The notes beneath the pieces are model-generated. The model saw only the letters and a program-made list of their open reading frames with translations, did not search any database and had not been told where the DNA came from. A program made the translations under genes and the position numbers. A DNA stretch of 64,000 nucleotides from a virus (lineage: Duplodnaviria > Caudoviricetes), in IMG/VR virus record IMGVR_UViG_3300023714_000001, one strand, 5' to 3'. Below, piece by piece: positions 24,947 through 32,319 of this stretch (the stretch's first letter is position 1; every line of letters begins with the position of its first letter).

Positions 24947-27900
24947 ATGAGTGTACTTAACGAGGGGAATAATCTCCCTGGTACAATCATCGACATAGAG
25001 AGCGAAGTTAGTCAGGACTACGATCCGTCTCTCTGGGGAACCACAGAATCTGTGGTAGTGATTGGTACAGCATTTCAGGGGCCGGTAGGTGTTCCGACCC
25101 AGATCTACAATGTAGATATGGCTCGTTACTTCTTCGGTGCAACGTACGATAGTGCAACCCATCGCTCCGCATCCCTGGTCGCTAACATTCAGGCTTGCTT
25201 TGACCGCGGTTGCCGTACGATTTATGCAATGCGCGTTGGTGGTAAGGATATTTACAAAGACTTCCGTCTCTGTGAAGCTTCCGAAAAGTACCGTCTCCGT
25301 ATTGCTGGTCAAACCCCGACCAATACAACGAAACAGAGTTATCTGCGCATCAATGTAGCCTCTGGTTTCGAACAGATCACCCTGTATAAGCCGGCTTCTA
25401 AAGCAACGATTGCTGAAAGAAAACAGGCTTATGTGGATGACATGAATTCCATCCTTGTCTTCCAGATCAATTTGAATGCTGATATTGGCCTCACTCGCAA
25501 CGATAAGCTTGTTGACCTGGTGCGCCACTTTAACAGCAATGAACATAACAATGTGTTTGTTATGAGCATTATTGATGCTGATGGCAATGATGTGACAAAT
25601 GCTCCTGAAGCACAGGAGCTTCGTATTGGCTCCCTGTTCTCCGGCATCTACTTCGTAGGCCGCGACAAGAACAGTGACGCCGCTCCGGCATATTCCGTTG
25701 TAACGGCTCGCGCTATTATTAACGAGAATGATCCGAAGCCGTATAGCTCTTACGATGAAAAGTTCTATCGTGTGGTAGAATTCAACTCTGATGTATCGAG
25801 CGAATATCCGATTACCGCACGTCGTTATGACGAGCTCAAAAATCTTCTGCAGGGTGCATCTGTTGCTGCTGGCAGCGATTATAAGTTCCTCGAAACGGCT
25901 GGTATTGTGGATCGTGTTTGGCTCCAGGATGATGTCGATTACGAAGAAGCTGAACTGAGCAAGTTCGAACTTTACAAACGACTGGGTTCTGGCTTCGCAA
26001 TCACTGCTCAGGCTATCGAACGTAAGGGTCGAGATAGCAAAGGTCGCGAACGTCGTCCTCGCATTATCGAAACGCCGGCTGATGATGCAAATCATATTGT
26101 TGGTATTACCGATGGTATCTATTCCCTGCTTGAGAATACGGAAGCTCAGTGGCGCGTACTGGCTGCTGCTAACGCTGACGATAAGGCAGATGGCAAGTTA
26201 CCCAAAGCGGAAGCATTCAAAATTGCTACGCCGAATCAGGTTAAGCTCTTCGGTAATCCTGTAAGCGGCAACGGCGCTCTTATTACGGCTACGCCGAAGG
26301 TTGCTGAAGACGACTTGACCGCACCGAAGGAATATGAATTCCACTTCGTAAAAGTCGACGAGGAAGAAACCGAATACGATAACATTGAAGATGTGTACAC
26401 TGACCATGTTGCAAAAATTGTTGCTCGTGTTGATACCGGTGTAGCTGGTCTCAAGGCTATGCTGAAGGCAGATAAGTACCCCAATGGTACGCTGTTCCTT
26501 GTTTTTGAGCCGAGCAATCTGACAGAAGGTCACCTGTATCGTGTTCTTGATGATAAGATGGCGCTGCTCAACATCACGCGTCTGGAAAACGAATTGCTCA
26601 GCGTAAACCGCGAGCTTTATGTTGGCCAGATTGTGAATGGCGATCTCGTGTTCGTTCCGGCAGATGTTACCGTAACAGCTGGTGCTCCTACGACATATCT
26701 TACGAAAGAATATGTTCTGGTAGATAACGGAACTTCTCTCTTCGTTGCGAATGTAGATGAATCTACTGTTAACGCAGGTAAGGGTAAGCTTCGTCCGTTG
26801 GGCACGCTTGAAAGCATGCTTGGTGATAATGACAATAAGACTTTGGTTTATGTCGAAGACTCTTATGGTCAGAAGAACCTCATCAATATCACGACGGGCG
26901 CTGCTGATTTCATTCCTCTTGAGGAATTCATGGAACTCTTACAGGAAGATACAACCCTCAACAAACTGTTTGGCTTTGAACTGACTGAAGATGGGGCAGA
27001 CCTGATGTCTGAATACCCGGAGGACATCGAAGCAAATTATGTTTCCTCTACTGGTGGAAACCTCTATTTTGAACAGACGCTTGCTGATGGCACTGTAGCT
27101 CCTGGTGAATTCTACGGCCTTGCTGAAAACAAAGCTATTGGCTACGATTACAGCAAGTACATCCCGTTCCGCACGAACGACAACTTCGTACGTCAGCTCG
27201 CACAACATTGTGCAAAAACTTCGCTGGGAACTTCCATGACCCACGGCGTAATCGGTTACAGCCCGCTTCGCAATTATTCTCTCAAGGCTATTGCGGATCG
27301 AGTTGAAGAACTGGTTAAGGTTAACTACTCTTTGTATGCAAAGAAGTGGAATGGCCGCGAGTTCCTGAATATCGACGGCAACCCATACGAAATCGGCGGC
27401 AATGTCACTGTAACGGCTTTCCAGTATCCCGTAACGTCTTCCAAAGACGGTGTAACGACTACTGTGAACGGTGCAGCAGGTTACGCTGGTATGATTTCCG
27501 TACTGCCTGTTGATCAGAGCACGACGCTTCAGCCGACTGGCCTCAGCGTGATTGATTTCTTCTACTCCAATACGCAGTTGAAGAGACTGATTAGCGCAGG
27601 GTACATTGCGGCTCGTATGACTGAGACGAAAGGCATCTGCATCGCAGATGGCGTAACCATGGCTCCGGCCACTGAGTTTAGAAACCGCATTTCCATTGTT
27701 CGCACAATGAATGCTTGCGGCGATTCCATTCGTCAGGCTGCTGAACCCTTCATTGGTAAGAAGAACAGCCTCCAGAACCGCAGCGCTCTTAAGACGGCTG
27801 TTGACTCCGCACTCAATAGCTTGAAGGATACGTTAATCTGGGATTATAAGTTTGAGATTATCAACCTGAGCTCCTACACCAGCGATGCTGAGATCGACAT

Positions 27901-27991
27901 CACTTACGAAATCTTCCCGATGAACGAAATCAGAAGCGTAACTAACAACATTACCATTTCTCACCAATCCACTGGCGGAAATAACTCCTAA
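24947..27991 (+). CDS. Tail sheath protein (1014 aa)
   Basis: LPGTIIDIE, VIGTAFQGP, AAGYAGMIS, EPFIGKKN and C-terminal sheath motifs. Confidence 0.85.
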   Translation: MSVLNEGNNLPGTIIDIESEVSQDYDPSLWGTTESVVVIGTAFQGPVGVPTQIYNVDMARYFFGATYDSATHRSASLVANIQACFDRGCRTIYAMRVGGKDIYKDFRLCEASEKYRLRIAGQTPTNTTKQSYLRINVASGFEQITLYKPASKATIAERKQAYVDDMNSILVFQINLNADIGLTRNDKLVDLVRHFNSNEHNNVFVMSIIDADGNDVTNAPEAQELRIGSLFSGIYFVGRDKNSDAAPAYSVVTARAIINENDPKPYSSYDEKFYRVVEFNSDVSSEYPITARRYDELKNLLQGASVAAGSDYKFLETAGIVDRVWLQDDVDYEEAELSKFELYKRLGSGFAITAQAIERKGRDSKGRERRPRIIETPADDANHIVGITDGIYSLLENTEAQWRVLAAANADDKADGKLPKAEAFKIATPNQVKLFGNPVSGNGALITATPKVAEDDLTAPKEYEFHFVKVDEEETEYDNIEDVYTDHVAKIVARVDTGVAGLKAMLKADKYPNGTLFLVFEPSNLTEGHLYRVLDDKMALLNITRLENELLSVNRELYVGQIVNGDLVFVPADVTVTAGAPTTYLTKEYVLVDNGTSLFVANVDESTVNAGKGKLRPLGTLESMLGDNDNKTLVYVEDSYGQKNLINITTGAADFIPLEEFMELLQEDTTLNKLFGFELTEDGADLMSEYPEDIEANYVSSTGGNLYFEQTLADGTVAPGEFYGLAENKAIGYDYSKYIPFRTNDNFVRQLAQHCAKTSLGTSMTHGVIGYSPLRNYSLKAIADRVEELVKVNYSLYAKKWNGREFLNIDGNPYEIGGNVTVTAFQYPVTSSKDGVTTTVNGAAGYAGMISVLPVDQSTTLQPTGLSVIDFFYSNTQLKRLISAGYIAARMTETKGICIADGVTMAPATEFRNRISIVRTMNACGDSIRQAAEPFIGKKNSLQNRSALKTAVDSALNSLKDTLIWDYKFEIINLSSYTSDAEIDITYEIFPMNEIRSVTNNITISHQSTGGNNS

Positions 27992-28016
27992 TGCTGTTAG
28001 GATAAATTAGGGTAAT

Positions 28017-28047
28017 AAGGCGGGCTATCCCGCCCGCCTTAATTTTT
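28017..28047 (+). terminator. Hairpin/terminator after the sheath gene
   Basis: aaggcgggc...gcccgcctt followed by aattttt. Confidence 0.6.
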
Positions 28048-28067
28048 AATATGTGAGGTAAATGTAA

Positions 28068-28193
28068 ATGGCAAATGCAAATAGCTCCACTTACACGAAC
28101 ACCTACACCACTTTTTCAGGTTGCGATATTGTATGCTCCTTCGGTTCTCAGATTATTGGCGAACTGCAGGGCATTAGCTATAGCGTAACAAGA
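28068..28193 (+). CDS. Tail tube protein, exon 1 (missed by the ORF track; 3' boundary ambiguous over 28193-28197)
   Basis: MANANSSTYTNTYTTFSGCDIVCSFGSQIIGELQGISYSVTR(E); GAGG SD; aligns with FSGCD...GEAQTISYS in 30223..32319. Confidence 0.85.
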
Positions 28194-28201
28194 GAAACAT
28201 A

Positions 28202-28230
28202 TTGACAATATCTAGGCAAAGCAGTATCAT
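28202..28230 (+). promoter_or_regulatory. Near-consensus sigmaA promoter for the intron endonuclease
   Basis: TTGACA-17 nt-TATCAT. Confidence 0.7.
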
Positions 28231-28254
28231 AGAGCAAAAGGGATGTGATATTGC

Positions 28255-29229
28255 GTGACTAGGAAAAAATGGACAATTGAAGATATAGAATATTTAAAAG
28301 CCAACATAGGCAATGCGACATTTGAGGAATTAGCGGAACATTTCTGTGTTTCTCGAAATAGTATTGCTCACAAGGCTAGTAAGCTTGGTATTAGTAGAAA
28401 ATCGTTATCCGGGCAGCTGTGGACCGTAGAAGAAGACAACCTTCTAAGACAACACTTCATCTACGCACCCAAAAATATGCTAGTAAGACTTTTCCCAAAC
28501 AGGACATGGGTGGCAATTTTGCAGCGAGGTCTAAAAACCTTAGGCTTAACGAGAAAAAGTCAAGATAAATACTTTATAAACTACAAAGCACTGTCTAAAT
28601 GGAATGAGTTTACTGCATATCTCTTAGGTTTTACAATGGCTGATGGATATATAAAACGAAATCATGGAGCAAGGCACGAGAACTCCCTTCAATTCGAACT
28701 AGCGGTTTATGATAAAGATATACTTGAGAAAATTGCAAGAAATCTTGATTTTGAAGGCCCGATTACTGAGAGTAAAAGAGGAACTGCAAAGCTTTATATT
28801 TCCAATACAAAGGTATTGGACGATTTAATTGAAAAAGGCGTTCCTGCTACTAACAAAACAATTAACGCTAAATTTCCTCCAAATATACCGAAAGATCTAA
28901 TTAGGCATTTTATCCGAGGACTCTTTGATGGTGACGGAAGCATCTATATTGATGAACAGTCTCCGGTTTTTCAGCTCTTGGGAACAAAAGAACTCCTTTG
29001 TACGATAAAAAACATCTTGCCGCAATTCTTTTCCTCTGTAAATGTTTTGGACCGCTCCAAAAGTGGTGCAAATATATATTGTCTAAAAATAAAAGAGAAA
29101 AAGAAAACATTTCACTTGCTTAATTGGATGTATAACGACTCTACAATATATCTTCAAAGAAAATACGATAAATATTGTCAAATAATTAATTCTCCGTCAT
29201 ACGGGAAACCGTGTGAGGACAGGACGTGA
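28255..29229 (+). CDS. LAGLIDADG homing endonuclease with N-terminal Myb/HTH-like repeats
   Basis: WTIEDIEYL and WTVEEDNLL repeats; AYLLGFTMADG and FIRGLFDGDG motifs. Confidence 0.88.
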   Translation: MTRKKWTIEDIEYLKANIGNATFEELAEHFCVSRNSIAHKASKLGISRKSLSGQLWTVEEDNLLRQHFIYAPKNMLVRLFPNRTWVAILQRGLKTLGLTRKSQDKYFINYKALSKWNEFTAYLLGFTMADGYIKRNHGARHENSLQFELAVYDKDILEKIARNLDFEGPITESKRGTAKLYISNTKVLDDLIEKGVPATNKTINAKFPPNIPKDLIRHFIRGLFDGDGSIYIDEQSPVFQLLGTKELLCTIKNILPQFFSSVNVLDRSKSGANIYCLKIKEKKKTFHLLNWMYNDSTIYLQRKYDKYCQIINSPSYGKPCEDRT

Positions 29230-29573
29230 AACCCAGTAAATCCTCAAGAGCTTCGCTTCCACTGCGAGGGATAGACAGAAACCCTCGTGAAGGTAGGGAA
29301 ACCTAGAAATAATTGCGAAGATGAGTCATGCTGAAATAAAAGCCTGCGAAACAGGTGCTAAAACTCATAAACAAGGGATGTTTGGGCTCCTAACCAGAAA
29401 TGGCAAGGTCAAACGACTATGTGGCTGAGAGGCCCGTAAGGGAGGAAGTCCCCCTGAAGTGCGTCCTACCTAAGTCCCGAAAGGGATATGGTAAAGAAGT
29501 AGTCTCCTCTCCAGGATTAAAACCCTGGGCAGAATAAGATTCGGTACAGAGTAACGACCTGTGCGAAGACAAG

Positions 29574-30143
29574 GAAAAGGCTCCGGTGTACACGATGGGG
29601 TCTGCAAATCCTCGTTCTTTCTCTCGCGGAAAGAGGGGTATCGCAGGTACTCTCGTGTTCGTGGTTTTCGATCATGACGCCCTGCTTAAGGGCTTGGCTG
29701 AACACGTTGAAAGCAACAAGGTGTTCCACCGTATTGGTAAGGATATTAACTGGAAACCGATGACCATTGAAAAGTGGGACGAAGCAATGAAAGATATTGC
29801 TTCTCAGGGCGACAAAGGCACTACCACTAAGTCGGCCGGTTATCGTACCCGGGCAATTTCCCAGCAGGCAGAACCGATTATCGCGGACGAAATACCCCCA
29901 TTCGATATAACCATAAGTATGGCCAACGAATACGGGAAAGCAGCGGTCATGGTGCTGTACGGCGTAGAAATTTTGAATCAGGGCAGCCAGTTCTCTATGG
30001 ATAACATTCAGAGTCAGATGGCCTGCACGTTCGTTGCTTCTCGCCTGAAGTGTCTTGAGGCTGTCGACATGGCAACTGGTAAAACCATTCCTAATGGTAA
30101 TGCTAGTATCGACATGGACGATTACACGACAACCCAGAATTAA
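29574..30143 (+). CDS. Tail tube protein, exon 2 (spliced product about 231 aa)
   Basis: EKAPVYTMGSANPRSFSRGKRGIAGTLVF...DEIPPFDITISMANEYG. Confidence 0.85.
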   Translation, partial: EKAPVYTMGSANPRSFSRGKRGIAGTLVFVVFDHDALLKGLAEHVESNKVFHRIGKDINWKPMTIEKWDEAMKDIASQGDKGTTTKSAGYRTRAISQQAEPIIADEIPPFDITISMANEYGKAAVMVLYGVEILNQGSQFSMDNIQSQMACTFVASRLKCLEAVDMATGKTIPNGNASIDMDDYTTTQN

Positions 30144-30222: not shown

Positions 30223-32319
30223 TTGACGAAAAATGAAAAAGAGCTTTGGAATGATTACCAAAGCACAATGACAAACAATATGGCTGCGTCCAGAAGGGCA
30301 CGGTCGAAATTTATTGCAAAACACCCGGGAAAACAGCCAACGGCAGCTGACCTCATGGAATATGGTTATGATGTGAACGCAGCTGCAAATCAGCTCGCTC
30401 AAAAAAAGCAACGCCTTATCGATAATGGATTTACTATAAAAAATAATAAATGGTATGCCCCTGACGGAACAAATGTTTCCAATAAGGGGAAGTTTCAGCC
30501 ACAGGAATTATTTAGTGATCCTCCTGTGAGAGTAGATGGCAGGGGCGACACGTCGGGAAGCGGACAAAGTAATCCGTCAGCAGGCTCGTCGGGGAGCACG
30601 CCGGGCACGCAGTCGTCAAAATACCAGCAGGCGCGAGAAAAAGCACTGCAAGACATTCAGACATCGATTAATGATTACTTCACCGCATCCGAAAAAACAA
30701 AAGTCATCCCACAGATACAAAAAGCGGTAAGTGATTTAAAAAGCGTAAAAGACAGCAGTGTAAAAAAAGCCATTAGTGATTATTCCCTTAATGCGACGGA
30801 AGCGTCATCGTTACAGCAAGAAATTGACTCTCAGTTTGAATACAAAGTAACTGCTGCGTGGGAAAGGAGTTACAACAGCAAGCCTCGTGAAGCAGTTGCT
30901 GATCCGGAAAAGCATGTAAGTGATAACGAAGCTTATGATATAAGGAAAAAATATGCTGAAAACATAAAGGCCGCAAAACAGCATGTCACTAAAACCATAG
31001 AGTCTGCGCTTAACCAGTTCGAAATAAACAAGCAGCTTCCGACAGAAACGGTTTTTGACAATTACGTTAAAAACTACATTGATCAGGTTGCACACAAAAG
31101 CGAATTCTTCCCTGTTGATATGCAGGAAAAAGAAAGGGCCTGTATTAGCGACTATATCTATCAAGATGTTGGCGGCGATCTACTTAATAAATACCGCGAA
31201 CTTGCAAAAGGAGATAACCAGGTTACGGCTAAGACCCCTGGTGAAATAATAGCGAACGGTACGGGGAAAACAAATGAAGCTGTAAAACCGAAGGTTACAA
31301 GCTCGAATGTTTCTGGTTTTGCTAAAACTAACATATCGTTCTCTGGCTGTGACATGGTTATTACTGCCGAGATGGTAACAACAAAAGGTACTCCAGTATC
31401 TGTAATGGTCGGTGAGGCCCAGACCATCTCATATTCTATTTATCGTAAACTTAGCCCAATATTGAATATTGGAAATATAAACGCGAAAGATTATGTTGGC
31501 GGCCCGAGGACAATTGCCGGCAGTTTGGTTATGACTGTATTTAATCAGCATTGGGGAACGCAGCTTATCGATCAGTTTGCTAAAATTGAAGGTTATGCGT
31601 CATCCCGGAAGGTTTTAATGGATGAGCTGGCTCCGATGAATATAACCATCTCCATGGCAAATGAATATGGTATCTGCTCCAGACTCGCCATCTACAGTGT
31701 TCGCATATTCTCTGAAGGCCAGGTTATGTCAATCAATGACATATTCACCGAAAACACATTCCAGTATGTCGCTTTAAATATTGACTATCTTGCAGATGTA
31801 AATACAAAAGAAGATCTGGAGCCATTATATCGTGATGCGATTGCTGCAAGGGAAAAGATGACCGAAGAGGCTTCCAAAACCGGAATCGACAAAAGTGGTG
31901 ATAGCGGCAACACGCCGCCGAATCAAGGTGGTGGTGACAGCGTTACAAAAGACGGCAAGATAGAATTTGACCCCAATAAATCACAACAAAAAACACCGGC
32001 CCAGTCATCAACAGGACAAGATACAACAGGAACGTCACCCACAAAACCGAATGCAGGGACTTTTCCGGGGGCGAATGGAGAGTCCATTCCGTATGGGAAC
32101 AATAAACAGGAAGACTTGTTGAAAGCCGCAAAAAAATACGAACAATATATGGAAGACCTGCAAGAAAAATTAGCCAAGATACAAGATATCAAAGCGGCAA
32201 AAACAATCTATAAGGAAATTGACCGAATAAAAGGATGGTACACAAAGATTGTACGGCTAATAAGTGAACATTACGATATTCAGCCAATAGAGATTAGGAC
32301 GGATAAAGAGGAGGTATAA
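30223..32319 (+). CDS. Tube-domain protein with long N- and C-terminal extensions (tube initiator-like)
   Basis: Central FSGCD...RTIAGSLV...DELAPMNITISMANEYG is paralogous to the tail tube. Confidence 0.7.
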   Translation: MTKNEKELWNDYQSTMTNNMAASRRARSKFIAKHPGKQPTAADLMEYGYDVNAAANQLAQKKQRLIDNGFTIKNNKWYAPDGTNVSNKGKFQPQELFSDPPVRVDGRGDTSGSGQSNPSAGSSGSTPGTQSSKYQQAREKALQDIQTSINDYFTASEKTKVIPQIQKAVSDLKSVKDSSVKKAISDYSLNATEASSLQQEIDSQFEYKVTAAWERSYNSKPREAVADPEKHVSDNEAYDIRKKYAENIKAAKQHVTKTIESALNQFEINKQLPTETVFDNYVKNYIDQVAHKSEFFPVDMQEKERACISDYIYQDVGGDLLNKYRELAKGDNQVTAKTPGEIIANGTGKTNEAVKPKVTSSNVSGFAKTNISFSGCDMVITAEMVTTKGTPVSVMVGEAQTISYSIYRKLSPILNIGNINAKDYVGGPRTIAGSLVMTVFNQHWGTQLIDQFAKIEGYASSRKVLMDELAPMNITISMANEYGICSRLAIYSVRIFSEGQVMSINDIFTENTFQYVALNIDYLADVNTKEDLEPLYRDAIAAREKMTEEASKTGIDKSGDSGNTPPNQGGGDSVTKDGKIEFDPNKSQQKTPAQSSTGQDTTGTSPTKPNAGTFPGANGESIPYGNNKQEDLLKAAKKYEQYMEDLQEKLAKIQDIKAAKTIYKEIDRIKGWYTKIVRLISEHYDIQPIEIRTDKEEV

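Follow-up and report, generated by a model that had tools for sequence, protein, structure and literature searches.

Group I introns of subgroup IA2 are known from essential phage genes, the classical examples being those in td, nrdB and sunY of T4 and in orf142 of Staphylococcus phage Twort. They often carry homing endonucleases, mostly of the GIY-YIG or HNH type, possess P7.1/P7.2 together with the R and S elements, and have a U-G pair at their 5' splice site. Nearly all group I introns have U as the last exon base. In sea anemones, the ND5-717 group I introns end in A. Group B IStrons are IA2 ribozymes that are inserted after sites ending in G; their introns begin with U, with the U-G pair displaced by one pair (Tourasse, Stabell and Kolsto 2014, PMC4227781). 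BcISt1 of Bacillus cereus splices after G in vivo, as found by reverse transcription polymerase chain reaction (RT-PCR) with spliced complementary DNA (cDNA) and by sequencing of intron circle junctions (PMC4227781). The same paper mentions C instead of U as a rare natural exception at the 5' site and left open how this site is chosen (PMC4227781). Here, we describe an insert of 1380 nucleotides (nt) in a tail-tube-like gene on a 64,000-nt stretch of DNA, called the window below, from the IMG/VR virus record IMGVR_UViG_3300023714_000001 (Duplodnaviria; Caudoviricetes). It is close to certain that the insert is a genuine, IA2-like group I intron, and by its sequence it is a phage member, bearing a homing endonuclease gene, of the ribozyme lineage known from the group B IStrons.

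Like these IStrons (BcISt1; CbISt of Clostridium botulinum and its phages), the window intron has the IA2 type with P7.1/P7.2 and an extended P9, and under the junction favoured by homology its last exon base would be G and not U. Unlike them, it has no IS607/TnpB module at its 3' end and contains a LAGLIDADG gene in the P1 loop instead. The stretch from the last hairpin to exon 2 measures just 10 nt and contains no IS607-type module with an AU-rich inverted repeat. The first base of the window intron is A paired to U, whereas that of group B IStrons is U paired to G, and its host is, unlike that of the IStrons, a gut phage of about 211 kb. The same ribozyme type was found in a Peptacetobacter chromosome (L278), where a TnpB gene comes immediately downstream of it, and inside a tail gene of the C. 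botulinum plasmid pRSJ19_2 (L392), where it is followed by TnpB. Both share the guide design, the P4 strands and the R and S elements with the window intron, and the link to BcISt1 was drawn through these two elements and the published features.

The T4 and Twort introns resemble the window intron in their location in essential phage genes, in P7.1/P7.2 and in the R and S elements. They differ from it by the U-G pair at the 5' site and by endonucleases that lie in other loops. Rfam recognises some introns of the classical kind, such as that of locus L084, but not the window intron. The C-for-U and ND5-717 exceptions indicate that neither U at position -1 nor a terminal G is absolute. They are single cases from unrelated lineages, whereas the deviation reported here follows a family-wide rule.

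The split tube-like gene and its product

The locus comprises the following parts:
28068..28194, + strand: exon 1 of the tube gene, read from the open reading frame (ORF); 43 codons, of which the final one is interrupted behind its first base if the favoured junction is used
28195..29574, + strand: group I intron of 1380 nt in its favoured boundaries; four equivalent placements are shifted by -1 to +3
28255..29229, + strand: LAGLIDADG homing endonuclease gene of 324 amino acids (aa), inside the P1 loop (Pfam, PHROG)
29575..30143, + strand: exon 2 of the tube gene (ORF, homologs), with an Hcp/tail-tube fold suggested by structural matches

The ORF beginning at 28068 terminates at an in-frame stop (28203-28205). 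The identical frame resumes past a stop at 29535 and runs to 30143, and exons 1 and 2 are in the same frame on either side of the 1380-nt insert. The phage contig L001 has an uninterrupted copy of the gene that is 94% identical (exon 2 at 94%) and has a 100% identical exon 1 peptide; the end of exon 1 was placed by homology with relatives. A search with the exon 2 protein returned more than 2000 relatives, many of which were exon-2-only tube proteins. Full-length relatives of about 211 aa read SV(T/S)REKAP(V/I/L)YTMG without a gap, and the gap-free SV(T/S)REKAP(V/I/L)Y was present in more than 10 intronless homologs with 58-81% identity. These intronless homologs fix the product of the split gene, which is almost certainly ...SVTREKAPV... 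and which we take as established. Together with the L001 allele they bear out the product with ...TREKAP... that an earlier reading of the letters alone (the original prediction) had put forward. The joined message would encode a protein of 231 aa, and the spliced cDNA is predicted to read ...AGAGAAAAGG... across the junction.

We also considered canonical splicing, in which U28186 would be joined after G29563 to give the product SVEDKEKAP. The sole point for this junction is that it would restore a 5' U and a 3' G with the frame kept. It was rejected because it adds a residue that is found in no homolog: every intronless homolog reads TREKAP, SREKAP or QREKAP. Moreover, there is no guide pairing for this exon end, and the site would differ from the ones in L005, L097 and L253. 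We regard canonical splicing as extremely improbable.

The gene upstream of the split gene (24947-27991) matches tail sheath families (PHROG 16991). Pfam and PDB sequence searches with the tube protein gave no match. A structure model of an intronless homolog with 77% identity had low confidence (predicted local distance difference test, pLDDT, of 61), and the best structural matches of this model were PVC, AFP and phage tube proteins and Hcp. The label "tail tube" is reasonable and moderately supported. Downstream, a 698-aa protein (window 30223-32319) has a tube-like domain at residues of about 360-528 that is paralogous to the split gene. The split gene product and the 698-aa protein both match PHROG 9206, which is labelled "major head protein", in conflict with the tube/Hcp fold matches.

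Fold of the intron and the endonuclease gene in the P1 loop

Between the tube exons lie the 324-aa ORF, in another frame, and then about 350 nt rich in GNRA hairpins. The ribozyme core from P2 to P9.2 has a length of 385 nt. The following elements were assigned:
28192..28196, + strand: P1 5' strand, three exon and the first two intron bases, pairing with 29190-29194; geometry found in 13 distinct contexts
29190..29195, + strand: internal guide sequence (P1/P10 3' strand), covarying with the exon in relatives
29197..29216, + strand: P2 hairpin with GAAA loop; 99.6% of cells paired, 7 of 8 pairs changed on both sides, present in the minimum free energy (MFE) fold
29222..29228, + strand: P3 5' strand, partner 29460-29466; 87.5% paired, 6 of 7 pairs changed on both sides
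29232..29386, + strand: P4-P5 domain with P4 (29232-36/29382-86), P5 (29240-43/29376-79) and P5a-e between (alignment, MFE fold)
29389..29408, + strand: P6/P6a; P6 93.8% paired in the 32 relatives described below
29409..29419, + strand: classical R element with the P7 5' strand 29415-29419, including G29415 of the guanosine-binding pair
29423..29455, + strand: P7.1 and P7.2 hairpins (29423-29434 and 29440-29455), a hallmark of IA introns (MFE fold; compensatory differences versus L005)
29469..29491, + strand: P8, outer pairs 100% paired
29490..29505, + strand: S element, J8/7 and the P7 3' strand 29500-29504 (alignment of relatives)
29510..29564, + strand: P9, P9.1 and P9.2 hairpins (MFE fold, comparison with relatives)
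29565..29574, + strand: 10-nt tail ending in the predicted terminal G29574; tails of 9-11 nt give open frames in relatives

The structure was written from the window sequence and counted on a MAFFT alignment of 32 distinct relatives with the variant S element. Across these relatives 70.6% of the cells were paired, compared to 60.4% in shuffles. The covariation score was 0.311 versus 0.144 in shuffles; it was reached by 0 of 500 shuffles, and slid registers gave 0.151 at most. Support by covariation was obtained for the central helices, and the helices supported in the 32 relatives were P2, P3, P5, P5a, P5b, P6 and P8. The MFE fold recovered the same helices (z = -3.2), and we regard the fold and its covariation as established.

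P7 is formed by 29415-29419 with 29500-29504, crosses P3 as a pseudoknot and is invariant. The pair G29415-C29504, for which guanosine binding is predicted, was present in 32 of 32 relatives, in line with the earlier observation that the G-binding G-C pair of P7 is kept. The MFE fold contained the hairpins P7.1 and P7.2 and the three P9 hairpins, and a pairwise comparison with L005 showed them too; subgroup IA2 is assigned from P7.1/P7.2 and the extended P9.

The original prediction had also stated that the usual P and Q motifs are replaced. The letters at 29232-29243 and 29376-29386 do differ, but the two strings pair as P4 and P5 with J4/5 and show compensatory changes. P4 occurs in two sequence forms among the relatives. 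One resembles the textbook P/Q; the other, that of the window intron, has other letters and still pairs. The window intron and that of L184 share a further compensatory change in P4. The same phage genome has, outside the window, a group I intron with textbook-like P and Q (G000:C1, about 189200-189560; L394:1200-1560).

The 324-aa protein matches the Pfam families LAGLIDADG_3 (PF14528, two stretches, E = 2.9e-8) and LAGLIDADG_1 (PF00961, E = 3.6e-5) as well as the endonuclease family PHROG 4645 (E = 3e-44), and contains two LAGLIDADG motifs. It is the sole ORF within the intron, and the insert of L005 encodes a homolog. A peptide-pattern search of viral contigs for relatives of the endonuclease yielded none that was confirmed, though L005 carries one. 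Because the gene occupies the P1 loop, about 1 kb separates the 5' splice site from the guide downstream of it. In the ORF-less relative L097, this P1 takes the form of a small five-pair hairpin. With its last 12 codons the endonuclease gene extends through the guide sequence and P2 into the start of P3 (window 29190-29229), and the homologous ORF of L005 terminates immediately upstream of the guide. The endonuclease presumably brings about homing, with intronless alleles like that of L001 as targets.

Relatives of the intron and the 5' splice-site rule

In L005/L006, whose tube gene is only 59% identical, an insert of likewise 1380 nt occupies the same codon, and L007, a relative of L005/L006, is without the insert. 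The 3' parts of the window and the L005/L006 introns can be aligned, and many of their differences are compensatory. When viral contigs were scanned with the 16-nt R region, more than 100 phage loci were returned. One of these, L084, was assigned to group I by Rfam (RF00028, 67 bits). The recognised relatives share the variant S element and the P1 design; we consider the family membership of the window intron as established. Megablast and blastn searches of the region and the ribozyme against cultured phages gave no match.

In all members the guide has the form N1-C2-N3-N4-C5 and stands immediately before P2. In 13 distinct contexts a three-base exon complement to the guide was present, 7-12 nt upstream. 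Of these 13 contexts, 12 show pairing between the first intron base and N1 (U-G, U-A or A-U). In the junctions that were worked out, the first base of exon 2 pairs with N1 too, as expected for P10. The loci L065 and L201 illustrate the covariation between guide and exon.

About ten other phage genes that contain such relatives have an exon ending in a G that pairs with the guide C. This G rule, which we regard as established in the relatives, is based on gap-free alignment to intronless homologs in three genes and on reading-frame continuity. For the terL gene of L098/L135, the cut after the C2-paired G aligns without gaps to the intronless terminases of L187, L071 and L219; the conserved Q-A is kept only with the cut after G, and the terminal G lies 10-11 nt past the last hairpin. 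If the exon is taken to end with the following U, Q-A is lost. Comparison of the tape measure gene of the L262 group with L243, L197, L198 and L161, and of L127 with L239 and L230, likewise placed the cut after G. The G rule also gave open frames and a terminal G 9-11 nt past the last hairpin in L175, L188, L180, L207, L163, L239, L103 and L274. In L254/L234 and L065 the tails have to be longer (20 nt, or one more hairpin). The frame of L259 is kept under both rules, and this locus does not discriminate between them.

The other rule that we tried takes the N1-paired base, which is U in most relatives, as the last exon base. For terL, L262 and L127 it needs a later terminal G, the product becomes 1-3 residues shorter, and the gap-free alignments and Q-A are broken. 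In L185 and L146, it is fitted by no terminal G. A longer J8/7 was also rejected as the cause of the shifted cut, because the canonical-looking intron L394 of the same genome has a J8/7 of similar length.

The predicted last exon base, a G paired with C instead of the U of a U-G pair, is a trait of the whole subfamily, including the group B IStron ribozymes. In the window copy an A-U pair (A28195-U29191) takes the place of the IStrons' shifted U-G, and P1 would be without a wobble pair under the favoured cut.

Several loci contain more than one intervening sequence. In the ORF-less tube intron of L097 (11380-11440, - strand) a second one starts 11 nt past the end of the first, after ...CCGGT; it leaves a micro-exon of 11 nt, and this second site has the usual U at its end. 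In L103, L127 and L098/L135 (tape measure, capsid-like and terminase genes), introns of the same family stand in tandem, with exons of about 40-60 nt between them. Among cultured Herelleviridae, Staphylococcus phage phiSA039 (L270:1400-1700) and Enterococcus phage phiEF17H (L271) have a group-I-like core with canonical P/Q. It sits in an unannotated gap after the small gene that follows the sheath gene, and an ORF of 309-368 aa comes next.

Splice junctions of the window copy

Two copies of a direct repeat lie at the junctions, both read from the sequence:
28194..28197, + strand: GAAA direct repeat, 5' copy
29574..29577, + strand: GAAA direct repeat, 3' copy

As the original prediction had noticed, the repeat allows five equivalent junctions. 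The candidate last exon bases are A28193, G28194, A28195, A28196 and A28197; none is U, again as claimed, and a canonical U-G pair is impossible at the 5' splice site for any of the five cuts. The paired last intron bases are G29573, G29574, A29575, A29576 and A29577. Thus, the claim of an intron ending in A holds for three of the five positions, with a terminal G at the other two. On the favoured reading, the repeat arises because each junction has the sequence G|AA, whose AA pairs in both cases with one and the same UU of the guide. Among the other members that have U at N1, those with both ends read (tube, two tape-measure sites and the L180 group) likewise show G|AA at the two ends. The guide pairing at 29190-29194 that had been pointed out earlier was confirmed: it involves 28192-28196 and is conserved in relatives.

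From the homology with relatives we infer that the last exon base is probably G28194 and that the intron comprises A28195-G29574. The favoured terminal base G29574 lies 10 nt after P9.2. In splicing, the intron RNA would fold into a P3-P8/P4-P6 core with a guanosine-binding P7, and P1 would be formed by the exon bases 28192-28194 and the intron bases 28195-28196 paired with 29190-29194. Free guanosine would attack after G28194, which is paired to C29192, and the freed exon would attack after G29574. The first exon-2 bases would pair with the same guide bases to form P10; the first two can pair with 29191 and 29190. The overall picture of a mobile IA2 group I intron in a tube-like gene, self-splicing by cuts after G28194 and G29574, is the one that we consider the likeliest by a fair measure.

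Exon sequences next to the site differ between alleles. Near the site, 6 of 15 bases differ between the intron-bearing allele and L001, all of them synonymous, compared to 2 in the preceding 36 bases. The differences supply exon bases that pair with the guide sequence, which fits co-conversion during homing or selection for P1.

A number of observations weigh against this picture. The junction is degenerate, and the choice of 28194|28195 rests on homology. The three exon-guide pairs served to locate P1 in the relatives and are no independent test. P7.1, P7.2 and P9 were poorly supported in the 32-sequence count, in which MAFFT misaligns them. A search of window positions 28000-29800 with RF00028 gave no match even at E ≤ 10. 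In the RNA runs X1/X2 from one fecal sample, only short contigs of low depth were obtained, none across either junction and without joints, and these runs are uninformative on splicing. The intron of the L184 tube gene yields REKAP only with a terminal A, at either of two equivalent cuts, and in the L146 tape measure gene the spacing of the homologs (AGK plus four residues) needs a terminal A 11 nt past the last hairpin.

Regarding Rfam, the whole window gave no group I match at the gathering score either, and nine other related loci likewise had no match. Since L084, which has the same R element, scores 67 bits on RF00028, the missing match reflects the reach of the Rfam model. It has nevertheless to be counted, together with the unusual pair at the cleavage site, in favour of an element that no longer self-splices, being decayed or protein-dependent, with the tube made from split pieces or not at all. 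P6 is also weak in the window copy, and P7.2 has one A-C mismatch. Against such a loss of activity speak all core helices and the guanosine site, which are intact and conserved in comparison to the diverged copy, as well as the intact endonuclease ORF, the essential nature of the gene and the near-complete phage genome record. In vivo splicing was shown for a related ribozyme that follows the same 5' rule (PMC4227781). We consider loss of self-splicing very unlikely.

The same intron with the same product could also be cut at another of the equivalent positions, either A28193 with terminal G29573 or A28195-A28197 with a terminal A. The five positions are indistinguishable by cDNA, the entire spliced junction is complementary to the guide, and P1 and P10 fit any register; the relatives L184 and L146, moreover, seem to require a terminal A. 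In the relatives that can be resolved, however, it is always the base opposite the guide C2 that ends the exon, and a G that ends the intron. The guanosine site has an invariant G-C pair, and the tail length suits G29574. Another register is therefore unlikely, though it is the foremost competitor to the cut after G28194.

The L184 intron is inserted 2 nt upstream of the window's site, and its guide makes six P10 pairs with exon 2. A further intron follows in L184 after ...SFSRG. For L146, a junction with a terminal G would give a product two residues shorter. The two copies may be decayed, may result from assembly errors, or may represent a real relaxation of the terminal-G rule; a terminal G is not certain in this intron lineage. 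A wider reading is that the splice sites are set by helix geometry, that is by the P1/P10 register on the guide and a fixed tail of 10-11 nt after P9.2, and not by canonical nucleotides. Members of the branch that has U at N1 (in tube, tape measure and other genes) would then do without a wobble pair in P1, L184 and L146 would splice after a terminal A with an unchanged G-C guanosine site, and the window copy might use A as well. This we judge quite unlikely. The comparison with relatives favours the terminal G29574, and the different 3'-end rule that had been proposed is not indicated for the window copy.

Of the divergent ribozyme with different splice-site rules that the original prediction had seen, a ribozyme intron in the tube gene without a canonical U-G remains. 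It is not isolated, being an ordinary member of a large IA2-like subfamily, and its 5' rule is no isolated divergence, as the G rule was already published with experimental support for the group B IStrons (PMC4227781). What is new is the spread of this lineage into many phage structural genes together with homing endonucleases, a branch without the wobble pair, and possible terminal-A copies. Because standard tools miss this intron type (for Rfam, the window and the nine related loci), essential phage genes are called as fragments, and a junction rule of "U-G at the 5' site" gives a wrong protein for this subfamily. The G rule allows the tube, terminase and tape-measure genes of many gut phages to be joined correctly. 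The subfamily offers a natural lineage of ribozymes whose cleavage site adjoins a G-C pair, in one branch without a wobble, and could be used to study the choice of the 5' site.

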